A DNA stretch of 64,000 nt from Nitrosopumilus sp. (lineage in GTDB: Archaea; Thermoproteota; Nitrososphaeria; Nitrososphaerales; Nitrosopumilaceae): NCBI GenBank assembly GCA_965205425.1, contig CBDBGZ010000009.1, forward strand, positions 224,001 to 288,000. Direction: 5' to 3'. The notes beneath the pieces are model-generated. The model had not been told where the DNA came from. It searched no databases and was given only the letters and a program-made list of their open reading frames with translations. Shown here in pieces: positions 15,009 through 39,668 of the stretch; the stretch's first letter is position 1; every line of letters starts with the position of its first letter. The position numbers and the translations under genes were made by a program.

Positions 15009-15236
15009 TCTATGTGAAATCTTTAAAAACATTTGCACTCTTTTGCAACACATGAGAATGGCTACCGCTAGAGATGATCCCATTCATTTTCAAAAGATGA
15101 AACCGGACACATATCTATTCGAGGATCTCCCTCAGTACCATTCTTCATCCATTTATCAGAACCATGCCGCAGTTACAAAACGAGGATCTCCCTCAATGTG
15201 TTTAACGAGGATTATAGTTCTGATCATAATGTTTCA
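15009..15236 (-). ncRNA. Putative bridge/seek RNA of IS110 variant C
   Basis: Two GAGG..CCTC hairpin units; TTGTAAC matches own left flank; ATAGATATGTG matches the end-to-end junction. Confidence 0.75.
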
Positions 15237-16347
15237 TTATGCATTTTTGATGCACTGGTAAAATGTCATGTTGTTTTTTAACATCCAGTAAATTATTCTC
15301 AACAGTTTGGATGCTGCTGCCACTGCAGCTTTTGATGTCCCCCTCTTTTTTGCAAGACGTTTGTAAAAATTTGTAATGGTGCTGTTTTTTGCATATCTTA
15401 CATGAGAATGTACTGCCTCCACCAGAACCCAGCGTAACATGCTACTTCCTCTTCTTGTTATGGACCCATGGCGTATGGTGTCAGCTGAGTTTCTCACCGA
15501 TGGTACAATTCCTGCATATGAACACAGTTTGTGAGAATCTGAAAATCTTTCGATATTGTCAATTTCAGAGGATATGGTTAATGCAGTAAATCTTCCAACA
15601 CCAGGTATTGATTCTAAGAGTTGTGCGTTAGAATCATGTTTTAGAGCATCCTTGATTCTCATGTCTGACTCTGCGATTCTATCATTGATTGATATTATCA
15701 TCTTGAGATATCCATCTATTCGATAGTCATCTAATCCCAACAGTTTGTGCACATATGAATCAGAAAATGCAGTTCCTGGTATCTTGATTGCATTTTGTAA
15801 GGTTATACTGTGAATCAAATTTTTCATCCTTGTCCTGTTGCGGACTAGTTTGGTTCTATATCTCACCAGTTGTCTTGTTTGCACGGTATCTTTTTCTGGT
15901 ACATGACAAGATGAGATGTATCCTCCTCTTAGCAAATCTGCCAAGATGTGAGCATCAATCTTGTCAGTTTTTTTCTTTGATGCTGCAATTGCTTTTGTGT
16001 GATATGGGTTTGATAGTATTACATCAAATCCTAGTTCGTCTCGCAGAAACCTAAACACGCCATACCAGACAGATGATGATTCCATTACACATTTTGAGTT
16101 TTTTGGGATTGCAGAAAATGCTTTTTTGATATCCCCTCTGGTGTTTGTAATTTTTTCATTGAATAATGTATGTCCTTTATCATCCATTGTTTCGACCTGT
16201 AAGAATTCTTTGTGCAAATCAATTCCGACATAGGTCATGGGTTTTGTCTTTCTAGTCCTAATGATTTTCTTTGGTTTTTTCTTGGAGGTGTATCTTTTAG
16301 AAACTATAGAATCAGCAGTACCATCTAAATTTCGTTGTTTATTCACA
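15009..16347 (-). mobile_element. IS110-family (IS1111-like) element variant C; recombinase 15237-16346
   Basis: VGIDLHK, VMESS, KKTDKIDA (DEDD), SIPGVG, AGIVPSVRNS; TA core at 15007-08 and 16348-49; ends TGTG...CACATAGA. Confidence 0.95.
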
Positions 16348-16352
16348 TATGG

Positions 16353-16568
16353 TTACAATTTGTATACTAGAACAAACAATCCGAATCCAGGTAACACTAC
16401 AAATGTCATAATCGTGATAGGTATATCCATCCAACAATTACTTCTATCTGCATTTGGACTCCATGTTGGATACAAACAAGCATCAGTTGGATATTGCGCG
16501 TACAGTATGATAGATACAAAGAAAGACAAAAGTAAAAAAATAGTAGATAATATTAGAAATTTGCTCAT
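16353..16568 (-). CDS. Small two-TM partner protein with Cys pair
   Basis: Two hydrophobic helices around a C..C loop; follows the protease gene. Confidence 0.65.
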   Translation of the reverse strand: MSKFLILSTIFLLLSFFVSIILYAQYPTDACLYPTWSPNADRSNCWMDIPITIMTFVVLPGFGLFVLVYKL

Positions 16569-16593
16569 TTTAGATACAAAAGAGTGATTGGCA

Positions 16594-19500
16594 TTATTGG
16601 ATTCTCAAACTTTTTGCGATGTTAGGCCATGGACTGAATATTTTGAAAACCTCTATACAGTTACCATATGGATCTCTAACCTCGTAATGTATAGTATTGA
16701 CATCTATGACACAAGAACCGCCTGCTACAATGCCAAGCATAGTGGATGTACCATTTCCATGATTTATAATACTTTGTTTCCCAACCCCAAATAACCATCA
16801 ACACTCTTTGATGCTTTGAAATCATTTCTGATTCTATTGCATTGCAATCATTTTATTGTACAGACAAACTTTCATTTTCAATTCATGAATCATGTTTTCT
16901 CTCTTGTGCGATGTCACATGCTCTCCAAATATTCTTTTGAATACAGAGAATACTCCCTCTACAATCCATCTATCCCCATAGCTTACGCTGAGCTTCCATA
17001 GATCCAAGTTATACAATTGTGCCAAAACGGACTTTCTCCGAGGATAACAATCAGTTACAACTGATGAGTTTTTTCTTGTTTTAATTGCAGGTAGAATATC
17101 ATTATCATAATACAGATATGAAAAATTATCCTTTGTATCATATGCACCATCAGCCAAAGTTTTAGTGACATTGCCAAACTGTTTTGATTGCTCAACTAGC
17201 GATATGAAATGTTTTGAATCATGTGACTTGTCATCTGTAATATCAATCCCTGTGATCTGTTTAGATTTCACATCTACTGCCACATGAATTTTAAGAAATC
17301 CTCTTCTCTTCTGCCATTTCTGTCTCATCCACTCACCTCTGTTTGCAACCTTGATTCCAGTTGAGTCTATTGCAATGACAATGTCTTTTCCTAGTTTTGG
17401 ATTCATCTTGATGTCAAGTTTGTTGACACGTTTCCAAATGGCAGAATATGTGGGAGTCTTTGTTTTGGATTGGAGGTGTGATTTTATCAGACCTTCTGTT
17501 TGTCTGAATGGAAGATGCAAATAGAGATGACAGTATCCTAGTGCCTCCATGAAGGATTCAGGATAGACAAATCGATGACCTTCCTTTTTGTGATTCATCT
17601 CTTTTAGTTCCATACTCCATGATTCCATTGCGTCAAAGGACAACATGATTTCTCCACGTCTAACTAGTGTTTTGTTGTAATTTTTCCAGTTTCTGTTCAT
17701 GGAATAATACAGAATATTCTGATCTAAAGCTTGGGTGATGAAATTAATTGGATCAACTAGTCATGTTGGGAAACACAGCAATTTATAAAAATAGGCCCCC
17801 CACTATCTCCTTTTTGAGAAGGATATGTAGCTGATACTTGTTCAGTTAAGACATGTGTTTCTAATGACACAGTTACGTTGGTGTAAGAAATGTGACCGAT
17901 ACCATCATTATGTCTTGCAGATATTTCTACTTCTGTACCCCGACTAAAATCATCTAATCCGCCAAAATCAATCACCTGAATAGTTCCATTATTGGTTTGC
18001 AATTCATTTATTTTTGGTGTTATGTTGTCATTAGATATTTCGATCAATACTGCATCAGAATTTGTAGAACTACCCATACTTACATTTGAATCTGACAATA
18101 TTGTCGAACCTATTTCTGGTAGGATTAGGGACAAAGTATCTGTATCAAGACTTACTACTCTGTACAAGCTAGTTAGATGTATGTTATGTGATGCAGTTAA
18201 TAGTGCAGGTGTTCCAGTATAATTTAGAATCAACCCTGCTGTTCCTTGTGAACCTGTAATATGTAAAGGGTTATTTCCAAATATTCTGATGGCATCCCCT
18301 CCACGTAATTCATGTGTCTGTTCATCTTCCGGACATCCATAGTTGCCATCACCTGCCTCATCAGGGCACTGGTCTATCCCGTCATGGAACCCGTCACCGT
18401 CTGCAGGCCTGCCATCAGTTACGGTAATGGTAAATGATTCACTTGCCCTGTTTCCAGCAGCATCAGCTGCATTGCAACTCACTGTTGTTACCCCGATTTG
18501 GAAATAACCAGTACTGTGTGAACATGTAACATTTACAGTGCCATCTATACTATCAGTTGCAGTTACATCAAACTCTGCATAATACCCAAGAGAACTACGA
18601 GGAACTCCAGTAATGTCTGCGGGTATCACAATTACTGGAGGTGCTGTGTCTGCAGGTGTTATATCTTGATCATCATTTTCAACCTTTAGTATTATATTGT
18701 CAATTCCAAACTTGTTATCCTCATCTGCAATTTGTGCAGTTATTCTCATCTTAAATGAGGCAGTATCATCAAGTCTCAGCGTATGCTGTTGCCACAGACT
18801 ATCCCCGCTGGTCCATTTGAACTTTTCAGTCCATGCGCTTCCATCATAAACTTCAACTTTGAGCCAGTCATCACTTTCAAAGTCATCATCAATTAGTTTC
18901 CAAAATGTCAAAGTTATATGGTCATATCCTGATATGTCGATACCCTCACGCATTGTAATGGTACAAGGCTCACATTCATCATCATTTGTTGCAACATCAT
19001 TTGTAATAGTATGTCATGGAATCACCCCGTAATTAGAACCCAGGTCATCATCCTCAATGTCATCCCCGCTTGTATTCCAGTTTCTCATGTTGCTAAATTC
19101 CTCTAGAAATATTGTGTATGCTCCAAGGTCTGCCGGATTGATGCCATTGCCAATTAGTATATTGGCATAGGCTTTGCATACATTGATGAATCCTGGCAAT
19201 ACGTCAGGTGTGCAGTTTGCCTCATAGTATGTTTGGGCAGGTGATGAGGTTTCTGCAATAAACTCTGCATATACTATCTTAATTGGCGCACCAGTTTCCA
19301 AGGCATGCTGTATCTCATTTACATTGTATTTGATACCTGCCACTGCAGCCATCGGATGCATGCCTACGACAAGTATTTTTTCTTCCTCATCAACATATGT
19401 TATGGTAAACGGATAGTCATGCTCATAGCTTCCTGCAGAATGTCCCTCCATGATTCCCGTCAAATCTGAATGCGCCTTGTATAACTCGCTGACTATACCT

Positions 19501-19682
19501 ACAGGACCTACCGTACCATCATCAAAGAGGAAATCATCAGGTGTGGTGGTTGTAGCACTGGTGGCATTAAGATTATCATTGGCACTCTGGGCAAAAGATA
19601 TCATATCATTTTCAGCAGTCGCGATAACAATCATTGAAAATATCAAAACCGCAAACATTACAGTCTTTATTTTATTATTCAC
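16594..19682 (-). pseudogene. Secreted multidomain trypsin-like serine protease (G[PS]VG leader, beta-sandwich, HYR, TSP3-like repeat, S1 domain), disrupted
   Basis: In-frame TGA at 19014-16; IS at 16770-17780; removing the IS restores GDSGGPIFINHGNGTSTMLGIVAGG; LTASH and GDSGGP catalytic motifs. Confidence 0.88.
16770..17780 (-). mobile_element. IS5-family IS903-like element; transposase 16834-17700
   Basis: NWKNYNKTLVRRG, AIDSTGIKV, ADGAYD; imperfect 16-bp IR; 8-bp target duplication ATTTATAA (16762-69, 17781-88). Confidence 0.93.
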
Positions 19683-19736
19683 AATCACTTTAATACTACA
19701 CAAATTGATTCTATTTATAATTTGTATCCATGTGGT

Positions 19737-20700
19737 GGCCTTGTAGAAACCATGATAAAATAACAAAATCTAATTTTCTAATCCTGTAGGAATTGTATGC
19801 AATTAACCTGTACAACATCTCATTGTCCTGAGTTGTAACATTTCTTGATGTGACATCTCCTGACATTATCTGTTTGATCACAAAAAAGATTGTTTCAGAT
19901 TTGTTTCTCTGATGGTACAATTGTACAGGAAAGTTCCTCTTCATCTCCTTTCTGTGAATTCCGCTGGTTCTGTAAATTGGAACTGTTCCATATCGAGTTG
20001 GAATTATTGCAGCTGTGTTGATCTGTTCTGCACCGACATGGTTATTCTCATCATCAAAACCCATGTCACCTAACACAATATCAACTGGAACAATATTGTT
20101 GGTTTTGTACAACAATGGCAGAAAATCAGGATTATCATGTTGTGGTGTGTCATGACACAGCAAACAAGCTGTGTATTCATGTCAGCACAAACAACAACTT
20201 TTAGGAAATTCCTGCGTAACTGTACTCTTTTTGTATAATAGTATGATGCTGTACTGTAACTGAATCCGCTACCATCAATTCCAGCTAGAACCAGTCTGAC
20301 TTTTTTGTACAAAATGAATTCCTGCAACATTTTATGTAACAGATTTCCTTCCAGTCTTGCAGCTGCCTTTTGTAGTGTGGTGTAATGTGGAATGGTATAC
20401 AAACCAAGATATTCCTGAATTCCTACACATTCTTCTAAAAATTCTGTAAATCTTCTATAACTCTTTGATTCGTACTGTCGTATTGTCAAGAGTATGAGAT
20501 GTGTCCAAACAGAATAGATATGATTTGATTTTGGATGTAAGAACCTGGGAATTCTGCATCTGGTGATTATATTGAGTAGTGTTTTGCACATTTTGACGTA
20601 TGATGAGACCATACTGTAATCTGCAAATACAATCCTAATGGATCTAAATTAGCTAAAATGTATCACAATTGGGTTAAAATCAGATGGTTTCTACAAGGCC
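19737..20700 (-). mobile_element. IS5-family type B, copy 2, frameshifted
   Basis: Same TIRs as copy 1; a 7-bp deletion near 20140 splits the ORF. Confidence 0.93.
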
Positions 20701-20744
20701 GATATAACAAGTGTTCCAAAACAGATGATGAGAATGATAGACAA

Positions 20745-21035
20745 TTAATCCATCAAACAAGGTAGATAGTAATGACCATTACTGGGCAGAGTCCAACATT
20801 GATCAAACATATCCTCATATATCACGTTTTCAGTTATGAGTATACCATGTTCGTCTTCAATTCTACAATTGGTTGGTGATTGTAAGAAGTGTTCGTCACA
20901 ACGTATGACATATTTTGCATCTTTTAGAAATTGTGGAGTATCTATGGAATCATAAAATGTAATTTGTATTAATGTAATAATTAATATAAAAAATAATACA
21001 ACTAAAACTATTACAAAGTTACGTTTTGATATCAT
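20745..21035 (-). CDS. Small membrane-anchored Cys-containing partner protein
   Basis: N-terminal TM, four Cys; 15 bp downstream of 21050. Confidence 0.7.
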   Translation of the reverse strand: MISKRNFVIVLVVLFFILIITLIQITFYDSIDTPQFLKDAKYVIRCDEHFLQSPTNCRIEDEHGILITENVIYEDMFDQCWTLPSNGHYYLPCLMD

Positions 21036-21049
21036 AAAAAAAATTGGTG

Positions 21050-21868
21050 TTAGTTAGTATAGTGCCACAAAGCTGTATATACATCCCACCAAAAAGTAGG
21101 AGAATCATATGTGTCTAGCTCAGGATTTGGCTCATTTAGCTGTTGTAAAGTATGCCATCCATTACTAATTACACTGCCATAGTGATGAGTTGTAGTATTC
21201 GAATAGATAAAATTCTCATCTCTAAATTCTCCTTCATTACAACCACCAACCCCAGTTAGGTTTTTCTTCCCATAATCATAACCTACACTATCACGATCTG
21301 CCCAAGGATGTTGGATTTGATGATATCCGCTAGCAACAAGTGAATTTTGAATACTTTGTAGATCATCAAAACCATCCTTGTTTACAGTTTTGGAAGGATT
21401 AAGATGTGATGTTTGTCCATATGTTATGCCACAAGCATTAAGTGACCAAAACCAGACACTTGTTTGACCTGAAGCACCACCTTGTGGAGTAGTTGTTGTA
21501 GCATTTGTTAGCAAACTAAACTTGCCAGATTGTGCTTTTGTCATTACATTATCTATGTCAGTTTGATCACCAGTTTTTATCACCTCGGTAATCTTATTGT
21601 TTAGTTTTGCCCATTGTTTCATGATTTTGATGTCATCACGTGATACGCTATCTTTACGCATCTGTTTTTTATCAACAACCATGTTACCTTCAGAATCATA
21701 TGTGACATAACCTTTGGAATTTGTAAATGCCTTATCTATTTCAGCTAGTGTGTATGGTTCTTTTGCAGCTTCTGCTGATTGTATTCCTGATTCACTATTA
21801 AATGGTAGAATCATCACAGCAATCAAAGTAGCAAACAATATAGTCTGTAATTTTGTTACGTTTTTCAT
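21050..21868 (-). CDS. Secreted protein (TILFATLIAVMILPF leader), Thr/Gly linker, distinct C-terminal domain
   Basis: Signal peptide resembles that of 57357-58283; start taken at MKNVTK. Confidence 0.8.
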   Translation of the reverse strand: MKNVTKLQTILFATLIAVMILPFNSESGIQSAEAAKEPYTLAEIDKAFTNSKGYVTYDSEGNMVVDKKQMRKDSVSRDDIKIMKQWAKLNNKITEVIKTGDQTDIDNVMTKAQSGKFSLLTNATTTTPQGGASGQTSVWFWSLNACGITYGQTSHLNPSKTVNKDGFDDLQSIQNSLVASGYHQIQHPWADRDSVGYDYGKKNLTGVGGCNEGEFRDENFIYSNTTTHHYGSVISNGWHTLQQLNEPNPELDTYDSPTFWWDVYTALWHYTN

Positions 21869-22002
21869 ATCCTTATCAATAACGATTTTTGATGGCAATA
21901 AAAACGGTTCTGTGTAATCTAGGTGACCTGTTTTCTTCTGTGTAGTGGGGTGACCTGAGATTTTTTATGAATTGTTAGATGGGGGTGATAACCATAACCA
22001 TA

Positions 22003-23329
22003 TGTGCCAAAATCAGCTAGGAAATTAGATGGTACTTGCATTCGTATCAAGAAAGTAAGAAATGCAAACAAACACACTACCCTTCCTGAAAAAAAATATT
22101 TGATGTTTGTAGGATTGGATGTTCACAAGAACTCTGTACAGGTGGCAGCAGTAGATGAGATTGGCAAATTATTATTTAACAAAAAGATTTCCAGTGATTT
22201 TTCTGCTATTAGCAAAATTACATCCAAAATTCCAAAGAACGCAAAATATGTTTTAGAGTCATCATCTGTCTGGTATGGCCTTTATAGACACATGACAGAC
22301 AAATTACATCTTGATGTTATACTATCTAATCCATACAACACAAAGATAATAGCATCATCACTCAAAAAGACTGATAAAATTGATGCGTACCATCTTGCAA
22401 ATTTGCTACGAGGAGGATACATTGCAGAATCATTTGTGCCAGATCACACAATTGTGCAATACAGACAGCTTGTAAGACATCGACACAAGATTGTGCGCAT
22501 CATTGTAAAGATGAAGAATTCCATACATGGTATTACACTACAGGAGGGAATCCATATCAAAGCAACACCATTTTCCTCAGAACACATACGTGCACTTGGA
22601 AAATTGGAGAGTTATAGAATAGATTCGTACCTACAAAGCATAAAATTTCACAAAAAGGAGGTTGCAAAAATAGATTCCATGATACGTCGCATGGTAAATG
22701 ATAATCCTGACGTGTGTATTTTGACATCAATACCTGGAGTTGGACCATACACTGCATTGAGCATATTCTCAGAAATTGCAGAGATTAGTAGATTTTCAAA
22801 TTCTCGCAAGTTATGTGCATATGCAGGGATTGTTCCATCGGTGAGAAATTCTGCAGATACAATACATCACGGAAGAATTACAAAGAGAGGAAGCACCATG
22901 CTAAGATGGTTGCTAGTGGAGGCAATTCATGCACATGTTAGATGCGCACCAGATAGCGACATTACAAAATTTTACAATCGCATTAAGAAAAAGAGAGGGA
23001 CCTCAAAGGCAGCAGTTGCTGCTGCATCAAAGTTATTGCGTGTCATATATTGGATGCTAAAAGAGAGGAGAGAATTTATTCAATGTCATCAATAATTTGT
23101 AAAACATTACAGTTAGGAGTTTGGCCGCGTTTTCACATTGAGGATGCATAATACCTCGAAACTATAACCGCGGTTTCACCTAATAAATGGATGAAGATGG
23201 TACTGAGGGAGATCCTCGAATAGATATGTGTCCGGTTTCATCTTTTGAAAATGAATGGGATCATCTCTAGCGGTAGCCATTCTCATGTGTTGCAAAAGAG
23301 TGCAAATGTTTTTAAAGATTTCACATAGA
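22003..23329 (+). mobile_element. IS110-family variant A, copy 1; recombinase 22004-23095
   Basis: VGLDVHK, LESS, KKTDKIDA, SIPGVG; TA cores at 22001-02 and 23330-31. Confidence 0.95.
23096..23329 (+). ncRNA. Putative bridge/seek RNA of IS110 variant A
   Basis: TTAGG/CCTAA and GGCCGCG/CGCGGTT stems enclosing guides TTTTCACA (23130-37) and AACTATAACC (23160-69); donor match 23220-30. Confidence 0.8.
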
Positions 23330-23331
23330 TA

Positions 23332-24655
23332 TGTGAATAAGAAGACAAGGAAATCAGATAGCATAAAAAATGAATCTAACAGTTCCAAAACTTGCAGTGT
23401 ACTCTCTCCAAAAAAGATTACAAACAAACAGATTAGGAAAAATCCAAAGAAAGGCATGTTTGTGGGCATTGATCTGCACAAAAAGTTTCTTCAAGTAGCA
23501 ATAATGGATGATACAGGCAAAGTATCACAAAACGACAAAGTGGATAACACTCATGAATCCATCAAAAAGTATTTTACAAAAATACCAATTTCTGCAAATA
23601 TTGTCATGGAATCCTCATCAGTCTGGTATGACACGTATCGATTTCTGACAGATACTTTGGGATACAAAAACGTCACACTCTCAAACCCATATTTGACAAA
23701 GGCAATTGCTGCATCAAAAAAGAAAACAGACAAGATTGATGCCAAGATATTGGCAGATCTTTTACGAGGAGGATACATTGCCAAATGCTATGTTCCAGAC
23801 AAAAAGATTGTACAACAAAGACAGCTTGTAAGATATAGGAAAAAACTAATCCAATGGAGAACATCTGTCAAGAATTCAGTTCATGGAATATTGTTACAAG
23901 AAGGAATCAAGATTCCAGGAGTTACATTCACTGAAACATACAACAGAAGACTCAAGGCACTAGGAGATTACAGAATAGACGGATTCTTGCAACAAATCAG
24001 CCACACCTTAATTTACAGATTGCAGAGATTAATTCCAAAGTGTATGCTGCTGTAAAAGTTAATCCTGATGCAATTTTAATAAACTCGATTCCAGGAATTG
24101 GGCATTATTCTTCGCTTGTCATTGCATCAGAGATTGCAGATATTGAAAGATTCAATGATTCTCACAAACTGTGTGCATATGCAGGAGTTGTACCATCAGT
24201 TAGAAACTCTGCAGATACAATACACCATGGCAGAATAACAAAACGAGGAAGCATGACATTGAGATGGGTTCTAACCGAGTGTATACACACTCATGCAATA
24301 CATGCCAAAGATAGTGACATTACAAAATTTTACAATCGCATTAAAAAGAAAAGAGGATCATCCAAAGCTGCAGTAGCTGGTGCATCAAAGATCCTGAGGG
24401 TGATTTATTGGATGTTAAAGGAGAGGAGAGAATTTGTACAAAATTATAGTTAGGACTGCAAGTCGCGTTGTAATTATTGAGGGACAAGGCCTCGTTTGAT
24501 AACTGCGAACAATCCTAACTAGGATGAAGATAGCATTGAGAGAATAGTCTCGTATGGATACATGTCTGCCATCTTTTGATTGAAACCATTCTCTAGCGAA
24601 AGCTATGCCCTGATGTATGGAAAGAGAGGAAATGTATAAAAACAATTCACATGGA
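23332..24655 (+). mobile_element. IS110-family variant B, frameshifted near 24000-24040
   Basis: VGIDLHK, MESS, KKTDKIDA then NSIPGIG in a second frame; ends TGTG...CACATGGA, TA core 24656-57. Confidence 0.93.
24445..24655 (+). ncRNA. Putative bridge/seek RNA of IS110 variant B
   Basis: AGTTAGGA/TCCTAACT stem; TTGTAATT (24468-75) complements the right flank AATTACAA; ATGGATA matches own end. Confidence 0.78.
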
Positions 24656-25019
24656 TAAATTACAAAAAGAGATTACAGAGCTAAAGAAGAAATTATCCTA
24701 CTATGAGAACCCAAACTCTCCACCATCATCTGATTCTCTCCACTGGAAAAAACAAAAGAAAGAACGAAAATCAACTCATCCAAACAAACCAGGACAAAAG
24801 CCAGGACATGATGGTAAAACTCACAGCTTCAAACCCACAAAAACAATTCATCATGATTCAAAGAAATGCTCAAACTGTGGCAGTAAAAAATAACTCAAAC
24901 TACACAACAAACTCGAATCATTGCAGAAATCCCAAAACCGCAACCAGTTACCATAACAAAACATGTTATTCCTTCTTACTTTTGCAACAATTGTGGAAAT
25001 ACAACAGTTACTGATTGCC

Positions 25020-26046: not shown

Positions 26047-26076
26047 TCTTTACGCAGAAGGGATATTAACGGTTCT

Positions 26077-26526: not shown

Positions 26527-26563
26527 TTTTATCCTCATATATCAGTTATAATCATACAATACT

Positions 26564-26701: not shown

Positions 26702-26707
26702 GATAAA

Positions 26708-26986: not shown

Positions 26987-26995
26987 GATGAAAAT

Positions 26996-28457: not shown

Positions 28458-28631
28458 TTGATTATTTCTTCTTTGGTCTGGAATTTGCAGGCATTTCAGC
28501 ACTTGTAGTGCTAGATACTCCTTCTCTGCTACCTATGAACTCTTTACCATGTTCTTTGGTTCTAAGATGTTTTGGACTTTCATCAGTCATGATGTGATTA
28601 CTGTCTTGAATTATTTAAACTCTAACTAATA

Positions 28632-30136: not shown

Positions 30137-30187
30137 AGTTTCAAATGAAAATTAAGTGTAAAAAGGAAGAATTTAGAAAATAACCCA

Positions 30188-30349
30188 TCAAGATATTGAA
30201 ACTTTGCCTGATTTTTCTATGGTAAATGTTACAGTATCTGGAATGTTAAGGAATTGATCTAAAGGTTTTGGTAATGTCATCTTGACATCTTTTCCAACTC
30301 GGTTAACACTTACTGTAAATTTTGTTGCACCTTCTTTCCATTTTGGCAT
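30188..30349 (-). CDS. AbrB/SpoVT-like small DNA-binding protein (53 aa)
   Basis: Manual translation MPKWKEGATKFTVSVNRVGKDVKMTLPKPLDQFLNIPDTVTFTIEKSGKVSIS. Confidence 0.7.
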   Translation of the reverse strand: MPKWKEGATKFTVSVNRVGKDVKMTLPKPLDQFLNIPDTVTFTIEKSGKVSIS

Positions 30350-30375
30350 ACATAACAGTACAAATACTACTATTT

Positions 30376-30417
30376 ATATTCTACCTAATACATAACGTTA
30401 ACATATTCTACCTAATA
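30376..30417. promoter_or_regulatory. 15-bp direct repeat ATATTCTACCTAATA flanking palindrome TAACGTTA; candidate operator
   Basis: Copies at 30376-90 and 30403-17 between the divergent AbrB-like gene and tRNA. Confidence 0.5.
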
Positions 30418-30429
30418 ATTAATATTTGT

Positions 30430-30500
30430 GGGCCAGTAATTCGAAGGTCGAATCTCTAGTCGTCAACTAGAAGGCTCGGGTTCGATTCCCGACTGGTCCA
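30430..30500 (+). tRNA. Atypical tRNA-Asp(GTC)
   Basis: GGGCCAG/CTGGTCC acceptor, ATTC/GAAT D stem, TCTAG-TCGTCAA-CTAGA anticodon arm (C33), TCGGG-TTCGATT-CCCGA T arm. Confidence 0.8.
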
Positions 30501-30539
30501 CGTAATGTTTATTTAGAAATGATATGTAGAATAATTAGT

Positions 30540-30880
30540 TGACGACTAGATGTTAGTTCGCCTTTGAACTAGCCTTTTTTCTATTTTCTGAAAATTTTAG
30601 AGGGGTTTAACATCTAGGCATAATTTCAAAAAATCATTACACCATTGAGTTTTTGTGCGTAAGTAAATTTTGTGACAATATCGTATTGTGCCATCGGGCT
30701 GAAATGAGGTTTGATTGTTCCATTTACGAACAAAAGCTAAACCCGCCCTGAATTTTGGGAATTGTAAAAAATTCACATCATGCCTGATGTGAATACAATA
30801 ATTGAGGGGGTGAATATTTACGCATAAGTTTTTTCCAATTTTACATATTTGATAGGGGGTTTAGCTTTTAGGCACAAATT
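30540..30880 (+). ncRNA. Candidate structured non-coding RNA
   Basis: Several 7-14 bp helices, one crossing; G-U pairs favour the + strand; no ORF in the track. Confidence 0.5.
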
Positions 30881-30931
30881 TGGTCATTAACAAATTTTAT
30901 TAATTCATCATGTAATAATAAATTAGAAACA

Positions 30932-31019
30932 CGTCAGGAATGGGATTCGAACCCATGAAACCGATGTACTCAGCAAAGAGATTTTCAATCTCTCGGTATT
31001 ACCACTAACCGATCCTGAC
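30932..31019 (-). tRNA. Atypical type II tRNA: GAA anticodon, long variable arm, G73
   Basis: GTCAGGA/TCCTGAC acceptor, AGAGA-TTGAAAA-TCTCT, variable stem GCTGA/TCGGT, ATGGG-TTCGAAT-CCCAT; TTAAATA box ~25 nt upstream. Confidence 0.8.
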
Positions 31020-31267
31020 GAGTTTTCTTCTAAAAATTCCTATTTAAGAATTGGTTCTGATGTATTCAAGTGAATAAAATCTTAGAATATTCAACCTTTA
31101 AAAAATAGAAATTTGTATTATTATTACGGTTCCGTTGGTGTAATGCTGACTATGAGACTTGGAAACAAGAGCTCAGGGATCGACTTTATCTTTCAACATT
31201 TCAATATATGAAAAAATAACTAATATTGTAAAATTTCATAAAACCTCTATTTCTCATTATTCTCACA

Positions 31268-31434
31268 ATGGTCAGCCGTGACTTTGTAATTTTGGATTAT
31301 TCACACCAAAGAAAGTACAGAAATCATACATGTGCAAAATGCGGAGACTTATTTAGTATAGGTGATGCTGTCCATACTCAAAGAACAAAACGTTCTAAGA
31401 GAATATGTCACAAACAATGTTGGGAGTCAATGTA
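31268..31434 (+). pseudogene. Small zinc-finger protein cut by IS630 type D
   Basis: CAKCG...HKQC; last codons of the ORF come from the IS end. Confidence 0.55.
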
Positions 31435-32532
31435 TACCCCAGATCATAAGTCTTTTCAATTTATTGTTCTTGCAAAATACTGATACATATTCAAATTAAA
31501 TTTGTGGGTTCTAAAATATTCCATAACTGTATGTCTCATCTCATGAATAGATTCATAAAATTCTGATTCAACATTAACATGTTTGCACTGTCTCCAAATC
31601 TCTTCAATCATACTCAAATGTGGAGAACCTCTTGGAAGATATGCCAGTTTGACATCTTTGTTTTTACGCAGATATTCTTTTACATCATTAGCTTTGTGTT
31701 GCGGTGCTCTATCGACGATAACAAATATTTTCCCGAATTTTTTACGAGCTGCCTCCAAATAATCCATAAATGCAATTGAGTTAAATTTTTCATACGATCT
31801 AAAAAAACTTTGATTATCATCAGTCATCATTCCATAAACCAAAAATCTTTGGTGCGATCCTCTCCAACGTACAATCATTCGTTGGTGTACATCTGTCCAG
31901 TATTTTTTACCAAGACGTACATCGTCTACAAATACAGACTCGTCTTGGATGAATACTGTAAAACCTTTCTTTTTTGCCTTTTCTATGCGTGAAATGATGC
32001 GGTTTTTCCACTTGCGGCACACATCCTTGGATGCTGCTCGCACATGTAGTTTTTGTGGAACCTTTGGTTTTAGATTCCATTTGTGCATCAAACGACGCAC
32101 ATGAGTGATATGATATGTAATGCGTGTTCTGTAAAATATGAATTGTATCAGTTTTTTTTGGAGTCATGCCGTCTGAAATTTTCTTAAATGTACGCTCTAT
32201 TTTTTGTAATGCTTTATGTGAGATTAATGGCGGACGGCCAGAACGAGGGGGGGTCCTCCAGACCCTCCAATCCGTATTTTTCAAATGAATCAAGCCAATT
32301 CCTTACAGAATTGCATGTACAAAACATTTGGTTGGCAGTTTCAGCAATTGTGGATTCGTTGATTTTAATCTTACACATTGCATGCAGTCTTTCCTTTTTC
32401 TTACCGTACTTTTCTTTTTTGTAGGCCTGGAGTAACTCGTCATTTGTGATGTCCATGAAATTATTTCTAACTACTGATCAAAAAGTATTGCTATTTGTTT
32501 TGAAAAATTGCAAAGAATTATGCTCCGAGGTA
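31435..32532 (-). mobile_element. IS630-family type D, frameshifted
   Basis: Ends TACCTCGGAGCATAA / TTATGATCTGGGGTA flanked by TA; QDES, VDRAPQH, SMIEEIW. Confidence 0.93.
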
Positions 32533-32625
32533 TATGTCTGGATGAGTCAACAAACAAGATAGCTCCAAATATCAAAAAAGGCTGGTATCTAAAAGGAAAA
32601 AATACACAAACCAAAATCAACTATA
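32533..32625 (+). mobile_element. 93-bp internal remnant of IS630 type E
   Basis: Identical to 33278-33370; bounded by TA at both IS junctions. Confidence 0.9.
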
Positions 32626-33771
32626 TAGTTTAGGCATATAAATTCTGAATAAACTGTCAAGTATTTTAACCCAAAAGATCTAGATCGTAGAATCAATTCA
32701 TGAAACCATGTCAAAGAGTACAAGACAATCCAAGGTTTCCTCTGGGAATCAATTCATGAAAGGTACAAGCATTAATTTTTTAAGAAAAACATGCAAGAAT
32801 GAAAAAAATGCAAAAGCAAAGATAAGACTAAAGGCTGCAATTTTACGCAAACAAGACATGAGATATTCTCAAATATGCATCAGTCTTGATATCATACCAT
32901 CAACTCTTAGTAATTGGTTAAACCAAATGAACCGAGAAGGAATATCTGCATCACGCCGCAAGAAATATTCTGGTTCTAGATGTTTCTTAGATAAAAAACA
33001 GCTAGTGTCATTAAGGAATGATCTAATTTCAGGTCCAGAAAAGTTTGGATTTAACCAATTCATGTGGAGTACAAGAATGGTAATTACACATGTGAATAAA
33101 AAATACAACACCCTATACTCTGCAAGAGGAATGCGTGAATTACTACACCGTATCGGATTCTCATCTAAAAAACCAAGACAGACTCATCACAAATCAGCCT
33201 CAAAAGAGGAACAAACCCGTTTTAAAAAAACGCAAAAAGGAGTATCAAAAAATATTCCAAATTGGGATACACCACATTATGTCTGGATGAGTCAACAAAC
33301 AAGATAGCTCCAAATATCAAAAAAGGCTGGTATCTAAAAGGAAAAAATACACAAACCAAAATCAACTATACTCGAGAAAAGTTTCAATCATTTGGTGCAT
33401 TGGGGGATGACGGTGTATTTTTTTGTAGGTTCTATGATAAATCAAACACAGACTCATTTCTTGATTTCTTAAAATCCTTGCAGAAACAATTTGGTAAGAA
33501 ACTGTTATTGTTTGCAGATAATGCATCATACCACAAAAGTCTCAGAGTAAAAGAATTTCTCAAAGCACCAAAAAATAAAGTAATCATCAGATATTTTCCT
33601 GCATACACTCCAGAACTCAATCCAATTGAGGTACAGTGGAGAGAAGAGAAAAATGGTAATGCCAATACATTTTTTGCAAATGGAACTGAGATGAGAAAAC
33701 ACATGCAGAAGAGACTAGATAATGGTGATGTTAGAGTTGTTAAAGTGTTCGAATATTTAATGCCTTAACTA
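32626..33771 (+). mobile_element. IS630-family type E (1146 bp, two ORFs 32708-33307 and 33262-33768)
   Basis: Ends TAGTTTAGGCAT / ATGCCTTAACTA, TA flanks; LDES, ADNASYH, PELNPIE. Confidence 0.95.
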
Positions 33772-33848
33772 TAGACATATTATTTTTGATAAAATCTTCA
33801 TATTTTTTGCTCGAGTTAAGAGAAATTAGAAAATAAGACCAGGTTAAA

Positions 33849-34004
33849 ATGGGCCAAATTTACAAAATAATCATGAAAGCCAGATTTAATGGAAAATGTG
33901 TAGAATGCGGAGATGTAATCAAAACAGGTAAAGAAATTCTAAAAAATTCTAAAGATCAGTGGGTTCACAAAGCATGTTGTGATTTAGAAGAAGAATTGCC
34001 ATAA
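33849..34004 (+). CDS. Small zinc-finger protein
   Basis: Manual translation ..MKARFNGKCVECGDVIKTGKEILKNSKDQWVHKACCDLEEELP. Confidence 0.7.
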   Translation: MGQIYKIIMKARFNGKCVECGDVIKTGKEILKNSKDQWVHKACCDLEEELP

Positions 34005-34056
34005 ACTGATAAAGTAGTAATAAATTTTTAAATAACTTTGTATTTCAGAAGATGAA

Positions 34057-34479
34057 ATGAGGACAAAATCAAATATGTTGTTAATGGCATCAATTATGAC
34101 TGTATTTGGCATAATGATGATACCAGGAGACATTTCAGCAGCATCAAACCAAGTTACGGTAACTCCAATCAATGAAGAAGTTAGTTTAGAGAAAACCATT
34201 ACTACAATGAGTGTTCCACAAGACAACAAACTCCCATGGGGAACGGTTAGAGGAGAAGCATCAGATGTTGCAGAACGATATCCAATTATCATTCAAATGT
34301 ACAAAGAAGATGATCCAGTTCACTTTGCACAAGTGGATGCAAAGGGAGATGGCTCATACGAGTACAAATTTAGAGTTAGAAGCTTAGATTCAAACACAAA
34401 CGAATTTGTAAATATCTTCCAAGGAGATTATACTGTAAAAATTTACAAAGTAATTCCAAATACTAATGATTTAGTATAA
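34057..34479 (+). CDS. Secreted Ig-like hypothetical protein
   Basis: Signal peptide; DGSYEYKF..GDYTVKI beta pattern. Confidence 0.75.
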   Translation: MRTKSNMLLMASIMTVFGIMMIPGDISAASNQVTVTPINEEVSLEKTITTMSVPQDNKLPWGTVRGEASDVAERYPIIIQMYKEDDPVHFAQVDAKGDGSYEYKFRVRSLDSNTNEFVNIFQGDYTVKIYKVIPNTNDLV

Positions 34480-35049
34480 TCAGTAAGGAGTTCCAGATTC
34501 TCTTTGTTTTGCCAAAGCAGATACATACCATTCAAACTCTTCTAAAAATCTAGTAATTCTTCTATCGTAATTCTCATCAAGTAGTTTGCCACCATCATCA
34601 AAAACTTCATGAACCTTTGAAATAGGGAATTGTGAAGAAATTGCCAAAGTTCCCATCTCTGCTAAAATTTGACGAAGATGATTTCCTGCAGTAACACCTC
34701 CAAATGAACCAACAGAATATGAAATTATAGCAGAAGGTTTGAAAAAATACTCTTCTAAAAAATAATCCAATGTATTTTTCAATGCAGAAGATACACTGTG
34801 ATTGTATTCAGGAGTTATCGGAATATATCCATCTGCGTCTTTGAGAATTTTTTGCAATTTTTGTAGTTTTTCAGGAGGAGAATCCATTTCTTTGTACATT
34901 TTATCAAGTAAGGGTAATTCTAATTCCACAGGATCTACAATAGATACGTCATGTCCTTTCTCTTCAAGTTTTGAGACAATCCATTTTGCTACTTTGATTC
35001 CATTTCTCTCAGATCTTACAGAGCCAACAATAACTACAATTTTTGCCAT
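34480..35049 (-). CDS. NADPH-dependent FMN reductase
   Basis: GSVR, TPEYNHSVSSALKNTLD, YSVGSFGG. Confidence 0.93.
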   Translation of the reverse strand: MAKIVVIVGSVRSERNGIKVAKWIVSKLEEKGHDVSIVDPVELELPLLDKMYKEMDSPPEKLQKLQKILKDADGYIPITPEYNHSVSSALKNTLDYFLEEYFFKPSAIISYSVGSFGGVTAGNHLRQILAEMGTLAISSQFPISKVHEVFDDGGKLLDENYDRRITRFLEEFEWYVSALAKQRESGTPY

Positions 35050-35155
35050 GAGAAATTCACAGTAAAACAGGATAAAAGATTTTTACTAAATTCAAAAAAA
35101 AATCAAATAATTTCATAGAATTCATATACTGAATATCCAAACGAAGAGCTAGAAA

Positions 35156-35695
35156 ATGAGTAAGAATTTTTGGCACGATATAGAATCAGGTAATGATGTT
35201 CCTGAAATAATCAATGCAATTGTAGAGATTCCTAAAGGGTCTATGAACAAGTATGAATATGATAAAAAACACAATATGATAAAATTAGACAGAGTATTGT
35301 TTTCACCATTTCATTATCCAGGAGATTATGGCCTTATCCCACAGACATTATCAGATGATGGAGACCCTCTTGATGCACTAGTATTAGTTACAAATCCAAC
35401 TTATCCAGGAATTCTTATCGAAGCACGACCAATTGGATTACTTCAAATGAAAGATGATGGGAAATTAGATGACAAAATTATTTGTGTTGCCACAAATGAT
35501 CCAAGATATCTACATACTGCAGATATCACAGATATTGAAGACCACTATCGTTCTGAAATTGCCCACTTTTTCCAAGTTTACAAAGACTTGGAAGGAAAAA
35601 AAGTAGAAATCTTAGGATGGAAATCAGCTAAAGAAGCTAAAATAGTAATTATTGAATCAATTAAAAGATACAAAGACACTTTGAAAAAATACTAG
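35156..35695 (+). CDS. ppa: Inorganic pyrophosphatase (family I)
   Basis: KYEYD, LDRVL, YGLIPQT, DDGDPLDALV, DDKII. Confidence 0.97.
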   Translation: MSKNFWHDIESGNDVPEIINAIVEIPKGSMNKYEYDKKHNMIKLDRVLFSPFHYPGDYGLIPQTLSDDGDPLDALVLVTNPTYPGILIEARPIGLLQMKDDGKLDDKIICVATNDPRYLHTADITDIEDHYRSEIAHFFQVYKDLEGKKVEILGWKSAKEAKIVIIESIKRYKDTLKKY

Positions 35696-35696
35696 T

Positions 35697-35951
35697 ATGC
35701 CAAAAGAATGCGAGCATTTCACCGAAGAGAGAAAAGTTTCTCAAAATACAAAAAGTTGTGAAGAATGTGAAAAGGAGCACTTGCCAACAGTTGCACTTAG
35801 AATGTGTTTAACATGTGGACACGTTGGTTGTTGTGATTCATCTATTGGAAAACATGCAACAAAACATTTTGAAGAAACAGGTCATCCAACAATGCAAGCA
35901 GTTCCAGAAAAGATTTGGAAGTGGTGTTATATTCACAAAGAGTATTATTAA
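35697..35951 (+). CDS. UBP-type zinc finger protein
   Basis: CEEC..LRMCLTCGHVGCCDSS..KHATKHF..TGHP..WKWCY. Confidence 0.92.
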   Translation: MPKECEHFTEERKVSQNTKSCEECEKEHLPTVALRMCLTCGHVGCCDSSIGKHATKHFEETGHPTMQAVPEKIWKWCYIHKEYY

Positions 35952-36037
35952 TAAAGGTGATTGTAAATCTATTACCACCAACTATTTTTGAGTAATTATT
36001 GGAAAAAACAATCAACATAATTGAGTTATCTAAAATA

Positions 36038-36245
36038 CAGTACTTGGGAAAGTAACTACCTGACATCTTCCAAATAGTATTCTGATTTTATTCTCCTAAA
36101 GAAATCAACAATAATAATTTCAAAGATGCACTTGAGAATTTCAATTGTAATTATTGGATTTGTGTGATTGATGGAACAAATATTTCTCAACGTACAATTT
36201 GCAATAATCCATGCGTTAAACAAAATCAAAGGATAGAAAAAATTA
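36038..36245 (-). mobile_element. ISH3-like right-end remnant
   Basis: CAGTACTTGGGAAAGTA resembles the TIR at 40970; LILFNAWIIAN-like tail. Confidence 0.7.
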
Positions 36246-36720
36246 CACTGTTCAATCTCAGGAGCTTTTCAACAGGGTGTTAAATTAGAGACTTTTTGTG
36301 TTAAGTTAGGTACTTTTCATATTGAAAAAAATAACTGGGATTTTTAATTACTATTTTTGTAAATCTTGGAATCTTCCTTAAGCAAGTCCTCGAGCATGTC
36401 TATTAGTTGAGGTGTGTTCCAAACATCGCCTATTGATTCTACTTTGAGAAAGTCTATTGTTTCCTTTAGTCTTTTGACTATTTCCTTGATCTGATACTTC
36501 TATACCTAACATGACTGCTCATTGAATAAAATTATGGTAATGGTTCATGTCCTCTTTTGTATCCTGAAAACTTGCGATATTCGTAATCAGTTAACGGTGT
36601 TTGATAACCGCATTTACAAAATGTTTTCATGATTTTGATAAAATTTACACATACAAAAAGTTTAGGAAACTAGCTTGATCCAATAAATAAAATCAACATC
36701 TGATTTTTTGATTCTTCATA

Positions 36721-38339
36721 TCAAGACATTCCAACTGTAATCACACCACCGCCAAACTCTGTAGTTGTTTTAACGTATGACGAGTATGCCGCATCATTAC
36801 TTGATGGAACAGGTGCGCCTTTTGCATCAAGATTGACCCTGATTACATACTCTATCATGTCCCCTACTGTTACCGGAGTTGCAATGTTTCCAGTTACGCC
36901 ATCTAGTGGATAAATGATGTTGACTGCATTGGTTGCTCCACGTCTCGTTTCGCCAAATGATGATGTCTCATATGCATATGCAGAGCTAGAGGTGTAGATT
37001 GTGTGGGTTTCTACATATTCCGCGTTTACAATTACGTCCACATCAACTGTAATCTGTGATGCCTGTCCGCGACTCAAAGCTGTCAGCAGCTGATCTCTGT
37101 GTCCTTCTGTCAGCGATTGCAGGTTTGTGATGCTGCCGGGATTTGCAGGAGCTGAGTATGGTCAACATATTACGGCTGAACTGGTGCTTCTAATAGGGAC
37201 ACTACTGCATATTTTTTTTTTCTACAAACTCTCCGGCATAGTTTGATGACAGGCTAAACGCAGCACTGCCTCCAACCGTGAGGTCTACGTTTGCAATTGC
37301 AGTGCCAGTATGTGTCGCAGTAAGAAACGTTGACGTGCTGATGTTTGATGATGTTGCGACGGTTCCGCTGGTACTACTGTCTGATGATGAGGATGATTTT
37401 TTTAAAACCTGCTTTATCTGCGTATGCACTGAGACATCTCGCATCAGTACCTCAGTATCTGTGCCGTTAATTGTGGCATATATTGTATCTGCACTTGGAA
37501 TTACAGGAATTACCAGCGCGTCATTTTTTGAGTAATTGCCATTCAGATAATCTAACTGCAGATTGTCGACTCGCATATTTTCAACCTCTACTGGAACTGG
37601 GAACACCCATCTGACATAGTTTTGTGGAATGTATACAAGGTTCTCTCCAGCACTCAATGGAACTGACTCTTTGTGATACATGTCAATCAGTGCAGCTCCG
37701 AGCGGTCCAATATAGGAGCCAGATTCAGGATACATCTTTAGGATTCCTCCAGATGATGATGAATAGTCCACATCATCATCCCGCAGGAATATTTCACCTT
37801 TTGCGTTGGTCTTGCCTACCACTATAGGTATTTCGTTTTTAGATATCTTATATGCAGTGTCTGGTGGCAGTCCTGATGCTCTAAAAAATACATCAGATGA
37901 AACATCAAATGATTCGCCCTTGATATCTACTGTTCCTCCATTTGGTTTTACTATCAAATACAAATCACCTGACGGCATCGTATAGGTTGTTTTTAAGCTT
38001 GCCGTAGACAAGAATTCAGAGGTATATGGCTCTGCTTCTTTTATGTTAAATGAAGCTGTAATTTTTGCCCCTACAGAACCATGTGTACCTGAAACTGAAT
38101 GACTCTTTGAAATGCTGTTAATCTTTGTATATTCTCCAAATGCTGATGTGTTTATTGATTCTCCACTTGGTACTGATACACTATAAGTTCTAATGCTAGG
38201 GGTGTGGAATGGCCCTGTGCCTCTTGTAATTGTTCCACTAAACGAACCAGACACTGCATCATCCACATTCCCTTTGACATATACCCCTACTGGCGATACT
38301 GACACTCCTGGATAAGACAAACCATAATAACTATAACCA
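36721..38339 (-). pseudogene. Large Ser/Thr-rich, probably surface protein; truncated by IS110, frameshifted and nonsense-mutated
   Basis: ORFs 37202-38339 and 36721-37077 joined by a shift at the A10 run (37212-21) plus an in-frame TGA. Confidence 0.75.
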
Positions 38340-38341
38340 TA

Positions 38342-39668
38342 TGTGCCAAAATCAGCTAGGAAATTAGATGGTACTTGCATTCGTATCAAGAAAGTAAGAA
38401 ATGCAAACAAACACACTACCCTTCCTGAAAAAAAATATTTGATGTTTGTAGGATTGGATGTTCACAAGAACTCTGTACAGGTGGCAGCAGTAGATGAGAT
38501 TGGCAAATTGTTATTTAACAAAAAGATTTCCAGTGATTTTTCTGCTATTAGCAAAATTACATCCAAAATTCCAAAGAACGCAAAATATGTTTTAGAGTCA
38601 TCATCTGTCTGGTATGGATTGTACAGACACATGACAGACAAATTACATCTTGATGTTATACTATCTAATCCATACAACACAAAGATAATAGCATCATCAC
38701 TCAAAAAGACTGATAAAATTGATGCGTACCATCTTGCAAATTTGCTACGAGGAGGATACATTGCAGAATCATTTGTGCCAGATCACACAATTGTGCAATA
38801 CAGACAGCTTGTAAGACATCGACACAAGATTATACGCATTATTGTAAAGATGAAGAATTCCATACATGGCATTACACTACAGGAGGGAATCCATATCAAA
38901 GCAACACCATTTTCCTCAGAACACATACGTGCACTTGGAAAATTGGAGAGTTATAGAATAGATTCGTACCTACAAAGCATAAAATTTCACAAAAAGGAGG
39001 TTGCAAAAATAGATTCCATGATACGTCGCATGGTAAATGATAATCCTGATGTGTGTATTTTGACATCAATACCTGGAGTTGGACCATACACTGCATTGAG
39101 CATATTCTCAGAAATTGCAGAGATTAGTAGATTTTCAAATTCTCACAAGTTATGTGCATATGCAGGGATTGTTCCATCGGTGAGAAATTCTGCAGATACA
39201 ATACATCACGGAAGAATTACAAAGAGAGGAAGCACCATGCTAAGATGGTTGCTAGTGGAGGCAATTCATGCACATGTTAGATACGCACCAGATAGCGACA
39301 TTACAAAATTTTACAATCGCATTAAGAAAAAGAGAGGAACCTCAAAGGCAGCAGTTGCTGCTGCATCAAAGTTATTGCGTGTCATATATTGGATGCTAAA
39401 AGAGAGGAGAGAATTTATTCAATGTCATCAATAATTTGTAAAACATTACAGTTAGGAGTTTGGCCGCGTTTTCATATTGAGGATGCATAATACCTCGAAA
39501 CTATAACCGCGGTTTCACCTAATAAATGGATGAAGATGGTACTGAGGGAGATCCTCGAATAGATATGTGTCCGGTTTCATCTTTTGAAAATGAATGGGAT
39601 CATCTCTAGCGGTAGCCATTCTCATGTGTTGCAAAAGAGTGCAAATGTTTTTAAAGATTTCACATAGA
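38342..39668 (+). mobile_element. IS110-family variant A, copy 2; recombinase 38343-39434
   Basis: 1327 bp like copy 1, near-identical; TA cores 38340-41 and 39669-70. Confidence 0.95.
39435..39668 (+). ncRNA. Putative bridge/seek RNA of IS110 variant A, copy 2
   Basis: AACTATAACC at 39499-508 equals the left flank 38329-38. Confidence 0.8.

Follow-up and report, generated by a model that had tools for sequence, protein, structure and literature searches.

The window analyzed here (the whole stretch of 64,000 nucleotides [nt], G000:C9:224001-288000) is part of a 2.2-Mb Nitrosopumilus genome with a G+C content of 33%, and its positions 15009-39668 carry four insertion sequence (IS) elements of the IS110 family, of which A1, A2 and C1 are intact and B1 is frameshifted. 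Comparison of these elements with their other copies indicates, with high confidence, that they are of the IS1111 type and that each combines a gene for a DEDD/Ser recombinase with a gene for a bridge (seek) RNA of ~120 nt located just 3' of it. The initial annotation of this stretch had proposed a natural, guide-reprogrammed IS110/IS1111 system with a TA core, and this proposal is supported by copy-wide data on guides and flanks, RNA structure and element boundaries. The sequences, the boundaries, the covariation within the structure and the covariation of guides with flanking DNA on both sides of the insertion are all directly observed.

The recombinase open reading frames (ORFs) of A1 (22004-23095, plus strand, 363 amino acids [aa]), A2 (38343-39434, plus strand, 363 aa) and C1 (15237-16346, minus strand, 369 aa) are intact, as annotated initially, and contain the PF01548 (N-terminal, DEDD/RuvC-like) and PF02371 (C-terminal, Transposase_20) domains, with E-values from 1e-22 to 1e-27. 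The three proteins also match the NCBIfam model NF033542, "IS110 family RNA-guided transposase," with 246-250 bits (246.5 for A1) against a cut-off of 140. A1 and A2 are 99% identical, and the C1 protein shares 57% identity with the A protein. The C-terminal half aligns to the recombinases of ISCro4 and IS621 (E-values from 4e-9 to 5e-8), and the rest of the protein shows no detectable similarity to them. In this alignment, Ser283, within GIVPSVRNSA, corresponds to the Ser of the ISCro4/IS621 SG motif and is followed by A, not G; the C-terminal motif of the IS110 family is given as SG, TG and occasionally TA in one account of the family (PMC11187229). The closest annotated relatives, found with tblastn in a plasmid collection, are haloarchaeal plasmid transposases labelled only as "IS110 family," with 33-35% identity over 88-96% of the protein. 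A BLAST search of the genome returned 14 full-length copies in addition to fragments: three A, two B, three C and six hybrids (A4 and D1-D5), in which an A-type gene and left end are joined to a B-type non-coding right end. A1-A3 and C1-C3 are 98.8-100% identical within each type, and their ORFs are intact.

The region downstream of the recombinase ORF, described initially as a non-coding end of ~200-230 nt with two loops, measures 236 nt in A, 204 nt in B and 230 nt in C and indeed contains two hairpin-centered internal loops; in A, only 7 nt separate the left end from the start codon, so that the longer non-coding region lies 3' of the ORF. An alignment was built of 22 different variants, taken from this genome and from metagenome-assembled genomes of Nitrosopumilus, Cenarchaeum and Nitrosopumilaceae, and its RNAalifold consensus contains five helices, with P1 and P2 enclosing an internal loop of ~10 + 10 nt around hairpin P3, and P4 enclosing a loop of ~10 + 10 nt around hairpin P5. 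On this consensus, 98.8% of 571 cells are paired and 9 of the 26 pairs show compensatory changes, compared with 32-46% pairing when the partners are slid by 1-3 columns. The G-U pairs that are invariant in P2-P5 are possible on the sense strand only and, as there are several of them, the fold is specific to that strand. The consensus helices are also found in single-sequence folds.

The predicted RNA core (P1-P5) occupies positions 23112-23233 (plus strand) in A1, where the consensus structure, the single-sequence fold and a match of 126.9 bits to a covariance model built here agree. The same three lines of evidence place the B1 core at 24449-24567 (plus strand), and the cores of A2 and C1 lie at 39451-39572 and 15105-15225, respectively, the latter on the minus strand. 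Within the A1 target loop, the right guide strand (23130-23138) is followed by the hairpin (23139-23158) and the left guide strand (23159-23168), and the donor loop consists of 23194-23203 (AAGAUGGUAC), the hairpin at 23204-23218 and 23219-23228 (AAUAGAUAUG), all on the plus strand. The right guide of A2 differs from that of A1 by a single C-to-U change (UUUUCAUAU). In B1, the right guide strand is 24468-24477 (UUGUAAUUAU), the left guide strand 24495-24503 (UUUGAUAAC) and the 3' strand of the donor loop 24553-24562 (UAUGGAUACA, plus strand). The covariance model has 17 matches in this genome; of 151 genomes sampled across the family, 18 contain matches, in 8 of 27 genera, and this patchy spread of the predicted RNA is what is expected of a mobile element. 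An Rfam scan of window positions 14500-40500 (E ≤ 1) yielded two tRNAs only and no family for the guide RNA.

The left boundary of the element had been placed 6 nt too far to the right: the true left end is ACCATATG..., and the duplicated core is the TA before ACC. The sequence TGTGTTTAGGTC... is the terminus of a multi-copy IS66-family element of ~1.37 kb (for example, G000:C4:208443-209810, locus L093 64-1431; no copy lies in the window), which encodes a 426-aa ORF with PF03050 and zf-IS66 domains and ends in 15-nt terminal inverted repeats, GTATGTGTTTAGGTC. There are at least six uninterrupted copies of this element, six of which read GTA|TGTG, and a variant with GTG and ...GGTCGTGCC. The IS110 copy C3 splits the same repeat, which then reads ...G-TA before the insert (ACCATATGTGAAT...CACATAGA-TA) and TGTGTTTAGGTCACGCC after it, and the comparison of the uninterrupted with the split repeats places the junction at ACCATATG. 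A sister family, F, provides a further comparison: in the genome of one relative (G031), we found 142 empty sites of the form TTTGCT(T)GATTCATAC (0 in the reversed control), and the occupied sites read TTTGC-TA-ACTATATG... on the left and ...CACATAGA-T(T)GATTCATAC on the right. The base common to both F junctions is T only; otherwise, the boundary agrees with that derived from the IS66-family split. A start at ATATGTG, as first proposed, was rejected, given that it would need TAACCATA in every target, and neither the IS66-family repeat nor the F empty sites contain it. The occurrence of UA at the equal position of the 3' strand in the target and donor loops fits the revised TA core.

In all classes, the two strands of the target loop correspond to different flanks, the 5' strand to the right one in antisense orientation and the 3' strand to the left one in sense orientation. 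We extracted the loop strands and junctions of 64 element instances with a script; for the right guide, instances without a recognizable right end were dropped and duplicates were merged, leaving 46 unique insertions, which fall into 20 guide classes. For the right guide and its own flank, the longest Watson-Crick run averages 7.09, compared with 3.17 for the guides of other classes (7.85 versus 4.09 with G-U pairs allowed), and in 30 of the 46 insertions no other guide scores higher than the own one. At the class level, the mean is 7.55, against 4.28 ± 0.32 after permutation (0 of 5000). Good fits include 10/10 at L037, L040 and L044, 9 at L016 and L014, 8 at L038, and 9 in the F family, the last at 10 of its 12 sites. 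For the left guide, the 5 nt before UA were compared with the 5 nt before the left core in fixed register (46 events, 13 classes): the own guide matches 3.22 of 5 positions and non-cognate guides 1.43 (0 of 5000), or 3.52 and 1.49 once nested left-end remnants are stripped. Clear left fits are ACGCA at L036 (5/5), GTTGA at L027 (5/5), TCTAA at L040 and L008 (5/5) and TTGC in F (4/5). The comparison of guides and flanks across all copies that had been suggested initially was thus carried out for both sides, and none of the 5000 permutations reached the observed value on the right (20 classes) or on the left (13 classes). Parsing by regular expression missed L011-L013, which carry the P2 helix CUGCG, and 7 of 12 loci found with the covariance model, all left out of the statistics, and 3 of the 5 parsed covariance-model loci were copies already tabulated. 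On visual inspection, L013 shows a 9/9 fit and L012 a fit that includes one G-T pair; the new out-of-sample loci are L100, with 4/5 on the left and a partial right fit, and L097, with a right-hand run of five bases and a left match of 3/5.

The matches on which the initial annotation was built are all present as quoted, although their interpretation changes in part with the boundary. The loop sequence AACTATAACC of A (23160-23169) equals 38329-38338 at 10/10 positions and 21990-21999 at 9/10; the match exists, but only five of its bases belong to the target, and the remainder are the TA core and ACC of the element itself. The C sequence TTGTAACT, with its flank TTGTAACC, and the B sequence TGATAACT were located as reported, and TTGTAATT of B (24468-24475) is the reverse complement of the right flank AATTACAA (24658-24665). 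The right guide of C had been regarded as a poor fit, which holds for the copy in the window, given that the C1 right flank, ATTGTTGTAG, does not fit it; however, the C guide strand UUAAACACAU is complementary at 9/9 positions to the right flank found at C2 and C3, (A)TGTGTTTA. Because the guide fits at these copies outside the window, only C1 would be off-target or rearranged.

The donor loop may follow the ends of the element in a similar way. As first noted, the sequence of the second loop is ATAGATA in both A and C and ATGGATA in B, which match the right ends CATAGA-TA and CATGGA-TA; across the variants, L008 is the only class in which the donor 3' strand AU(A/G)GA-UA does not track the right end CAT(A/G)GA-TA. 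On the donor 5' strand, AUGG(U) accompanies left ends with ACCAT, and AUAG accompanies ACTAT. Additionally, the 2 nt after the donor-loop UA match the first 2 nt of the right target at 1.15 of 2 positions, compared with 0.66 after permutation (1 of 5000), with the B, D and F types as exceptions, and in the target loop the equivalent positions carry AC of the element itself. We treat this as a lead pointing to a possible handshake that involves the bottom-strand side, the mirror image of IS621, for which the handshake guides are described as lying in the right guides (PMC11208158).

The predicted guides in this genome are aimed mostly at the ends of other mobile elements. All 13 A-type copies with a readable right junction have TGTGAATAA on the right and AAC(T/C)A-TA on the left, so the flanks of A are a sibling IS left end and not host DNA in 13 of 13 cases, and the A-type target lies within the left end of a B- or C-type element, AC(C/T)A-TA-TGTGAATAA. 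The target of C is the terminal inverted repeat of the IS66-family element, G-TA-TGTGTTTAGG, and that of F is the last bases of the repeat with 142 free copies. Further classes fit targets unrelated to IS110 ends, namely ACAATCATAA at L037 (10/10), TATACTGCG at L016 (9) and TGATTCATA in F (9), as well as those at L038 and L027. As a separate observation on G031 (the genome behind L023; see, for example, L073-L092), the sequence ...ACGTTATAGGCATAAAACATGTTCTTTGCT(T)GATTCATAC is repeated and stops at a constant position before unique DNA. Of its copies, 142 are free of an insertion and ~20 carry an F-type IS110 element, and the repeat probably represents the terminus of a further mobile element or of a miniature inverted-repeat transposable element.

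In the mechanism that we infer, including its chemistry, the RNA would be transcribed from the non-coding end and bound by the recombinase, which would act on a circular intermediate. The predicted RNA is built from two modules, in each of which an internal loop surrounds a GAGG..CCUC hairpin. In the first, the target loop, the 5' strand is antisense to the DNA on the right side of the insertion point, and the 3' strand reads 5 nt of the left-side DNA, then UA (the core), then AC(N). In the second, the donor loop, the 5' strand AUGGU or AUAG would be antisense to the left end ACCAT or ACTAT, and the 3' strand AU[A/G]GA-UA would read the right end of the element and the core. If IS621 and ISEc11 are taken as models, the RNA would then bridge the circle junction, ...CAT(A/G)GA-TA-AC(C/T)ATATG..., to a target of the form N5-TA-N7-10, with the recombinase exchanging strands at TA.

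Several observations weigh against this reading. The right fits of C1, D3, B2, L051 and L025 are poor, with longest runs of 4, 4, 5, 4 and 4, respectively, as are those of D4 (4 without and 5 with G-U pairs), D2 (2 and 7), L033 (2 and 7) and L036 (2 and 6), and the left guide matches only 2/5 positions at L010, L021, L038 and L051 and 1/5 at C3, L015, L017 and L018. Relative to the core, the right guide shifts in register by 1-2 nt between classes, as the initial annotation had noted for A and B; B-type right guides span the whole core, and those of most other classes cover only its A. The permutation figures overstate independence, because the guide classes are related to each other, and the donor-loop covariation is weak and could reflect co-inheritance, since there are two states each at closely linked sites. 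Folding energies are ordinary (z-scores of -0.76, -1.44 and -1.00, and -1.02 for the A1 antisense strand), so that the structural support rests on covariation and not on energy. Among the seven sequencing runs found, five of which contain at least half of the sampled words, none is recorded as RNA. The guides track flanks across classes but not copy by copy, with D2-D4, B2, C1, L025, L033 and L051 fitting poorly.

Among the alternatives, the matches between loops and flanks might be a by-product of IS-derived flanks, that is, of nested copies and subterminal repeats, rather than an expression of guide function. The A type lends itself to this explanation, as its flanks are sibling IS ends throughout and its right guide has 7 nt in common with its own right-end repeat (UUCACAU and TTCACAT), which is complementary to any sibling left end; moreover, 5 of the 10 bases in the left match first reported are core plus IS-internal sequence. 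We nevertheless consider a by-product highly improbable, given that L037, L016, F, L038 and L027 match targets unrelated to IS110 ends, with the empty sites available for F, and that the 5-nt left guides ACGCA, GTTGA, TCTAA and TTGC track their flanks too. The structured end could also work as single-stranded DNA, in the manner of the guide sequences of IS200/IS605, and a single strand of DNA would satisfy the strand-specific structure and the G-T pairs equally, the RNA being predicted only. However, the proteins are DEDD/Ser IS110 recombinases, for members of which RNA guides are reported to be experimentally shown (PMC11187229, PMC11208160), and the two-loop layout and the top-then-bottom order of the guides agree with the RNA systems, which makes a role as DNA very unlikely.

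A further alternative is that the elements are relics whose guides record past insertions and whose positions result mostly from homologous recombination or gene conversion, without active self-targeting at present. The frameshift in B1, the A/B hybrid nature of the D-type copies, the different right guides of D3 and L008 at one right flank, and the better fit of the A4 and B1 guides to each other's flank than to their own are all compatible with such a history. The near-identity of A1-A3 and of C1-C3 and their intact ORFs speak against it, and we regard it as very improbable; in any case, it concerns present activity and not the nature of the system.

Returning to a bridge-RNA system of the IS1111 type, the elements resemble the seekRNA elements ISEc11, ISKpn4, ISPa11 and ISPst6, as reported by Siddiquee et al. 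2024 (PMC11187229), in the long downstream non-coding region, the subterminal inverted repeats, the position of the top-strand-complementary segment 5' of the bottom-strand one, and the specific target of each variant. Both the downstream location and the order of the two matches are given there as features of IS1111-type elements. The subterminal inverted repeats are 8 bp in B (ATGTGAAT and ATTCACAT, 5 nt from the left end and 3 nt from the right) and 7 bp in C, and they are imperfect in A (ATGTG plus AAATC), compared with 7-17 bp in the IS1111 group. The differences are the archaeal host, with relatives in Nitrosopumilus, Cenarchaeum and Nitrosopumilaceae, the absence of a match to an Rfam family, a motif G-x-x-P-x-x-x-x-S-A in place of the SG or TG reported in PMC11187229, and top- and bottom-strand matches that barely overlap in most classes. 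With IS621 and ISCro4, as described by Durrant et al. 2024 (PMC11208160) and Hiraizumi et al. 2024 (PMC11208158), the elements share target and donor internal loops, a DEDD plus Ser recombinase and, in each loop, a left guide on the bottom strand, a right guide on the top strand and a dinucleotide core. In contrast to IS621 and ISCro4, the RNA lies in the right end and not in the left, the order of guides within the loops is reversed, the core is TA and not CT, and the similarity of the recombinase is detectable in the C-terminal half only. The haloarchaeal plasmid transposases, compared by protein, are the closest annotated relatives yet distant.

Insertion at a fixed position in the terminal repeat of another mobile element is known, and C in the IS66-family repeat, A in sibling left ends and F at a repeat end resemble it; hosts and targets differ, and one variant here is aimed at the donor end of a sibling from within the family. 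The elements are very probably an archaeal bridge-RNA system of the IS1111 type, the kind is already known, and so are archaeal IS110 recombinases, of which 662 are counted in one study (10.1101/2024.06.21.599552). The core and, for target and donor alike, a left and a right guide are defined in PMC11208160, where bridge RNAs are also predicted in the right end of 93% of the IS1111 elements in ISfinder; because bridge RNAs are already predicted for most IS1111 elements, the concept is unchanged. Among the 15 titles returned by a literature search combining IS110 with thaumarchaeal names, none concerns such RNAs, and a single one mentions IS110. The elements would extend RNA-guided bridge recombination, for which the experiments concern bacterial elements only, to mesophilic, AT-rich, ammonia-oxidizing archaea. 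They also form a natural panel of ~20 guide variants on a near-constant scaffold, with known targets and 142 empty sites for one variant, and thereby amount to a ready data set on the specificity of a TA-core system of the IS1111 type.

Targeting of IS by IS within one genome, directed at sibling left ends, the IS66-family terminal repeat and the end of another repeat, would explain nested and hybrid copies, and the annotation of such genomes should allow for it. In the window, A1 (21997-23329, plus strand) begins with ACCATATGTGCC... and ends with ...TTCACATAGA, limits that follow from copy comparison together with the split IS66-family repeat and the sister-family empty sites, and its core TA copies are at 21995-21996 and 23330-23331. 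The sequence ATAACC-ATAACC-ATA on its left consists of TA-ACCA, the core and first four bases of B1, followed by TA-ACCATATG of A1, and, because the revised boundary splits this sequence into a B1 part and an A1 part, A1 sits inside the left end of B1. The ACCA severed by the A1 insertion is at 21991-21994, preceded by B1's own left core TA at 21989-21990, as read from TA-ACCA-TA-ACCATATG, and the remainder of B1 (TGTGAATAAG...CACATGGA) spans 23332-24655 on the plus strand, with its right core TA at 24656-24657 and the recombinase ORF split by the frameshift into 23255-24055 and 24040-24453. The second A element, A2 (38336-39668, plus strand; core TA copies at 38334-38335 and 39669-39670), is hosted by a 47-nt remnant of a B-type left end (TGTGAATAAGAAAGC..., 39671-39717, plus strand), the first 4 nt of which (ACTA) are at 38330-38333; behind A2, this remnant is cut by an IS630-like element starting near 39716. 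C1 occupies 15009-16353 on the minus strand, with core TA copies at 16354-16355 and 15007-15008. The nesting of A in B recurs at C8:46852 (A3 in B2) and in the relatives L002-L006.

The hybrids retain ACTA-TA before the A-type left end. In the relative L008, ACTA-TA is preceded by TCTAA, five bases identical to the left guide UCUAA, and ACTAT is matched by the B-type donor-loop strand AUAG. Because of these three features, the hybrids would have arisen by deletion from A-in-B nests, an origin that we infer rather than demonstrate. Such a nest could collapse into a hybrid because the first 6 nt of the B end would outlast the insertion of A. It is conceivable, though on balance doubtful, that variant A is a hyperparasitic IS directed against sibling B- and C-type left ends and that nest collapse amounts to a natural swap of guide cassettes between recombinases; the D-type hybrids, with an A gene and a B guide RNA and right end, would then move on with a different guide module.

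Two pairs of copies show further rearrangements of guides and flanks. D3 (G000:C9:86712-88011) and L008 (OZ242186.1) have the right flank ATTTCAGTGA[C/T]TAGTCACCTGC... in common and differ in left flank and right guide; the common flank is fitted by the L008 guide (UUGAAAUUUA) only, which suggests replacement of the guide or recombination after insertion. The right guide of B1 (24468-24477) fits the flank of A4 (G000:C9:39378-40679), ATAATTACAA, at 10/10 positions, and the A4 guide fits the B1 flank (ATAAATTACAA) at 11/11, so that each guide does better on the flank of the other copy than on its own; guides or flanks appear to have been swapped by one base of register.

A search for an empty site with the left flank of A1 (window 21500-21990) in 31 genomes returned short repeat matches only and no orthologous empty site. 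Contigs of four sequencing runs covering 14500-24900 contained no joint across any IS110 element and no circle junction, and their loose ends at element ends were short and uninformative; the sole joint is a 1019-nt skip of an unrelated IS. This IS, with a DDE_Tnp_1 transposase, lies at 16762-17780 (ORF 16834-17700, PF01609), and the contig of run X4 that joins 16761 to 17781 indicates that its insertion is polymorphic among the sampled populations.

Other features of the window include three copies of an IS630/Tc1-like element (39716-40818, 49756-50842 and 58572-59793) with DDE_3 and helix-turn-helix domains (ORF 39794-40795). The repeats at 8469-9341 and 19737-20435 are 99-100% identical, form part of an IS-like element (ORFs 19014-20612) and exceed everything else in contig depth by a wide margin in each of the four runs compared. 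A 404-aa ORF without a Pfam match (37202-38416, minus strand) has its first ~27 codons inside the left end of A2 and is probably a host gene truncated or extended by the A2 insertion. Of the two tRNA genes, the one at 30430-30500 (plus strand) is uninterrupted, and the 88-nt gene at 30932-31019 (minus strand) has an 18-nt insertion 3' of the anticodon arm that resembles an archaeal tRNA intron.

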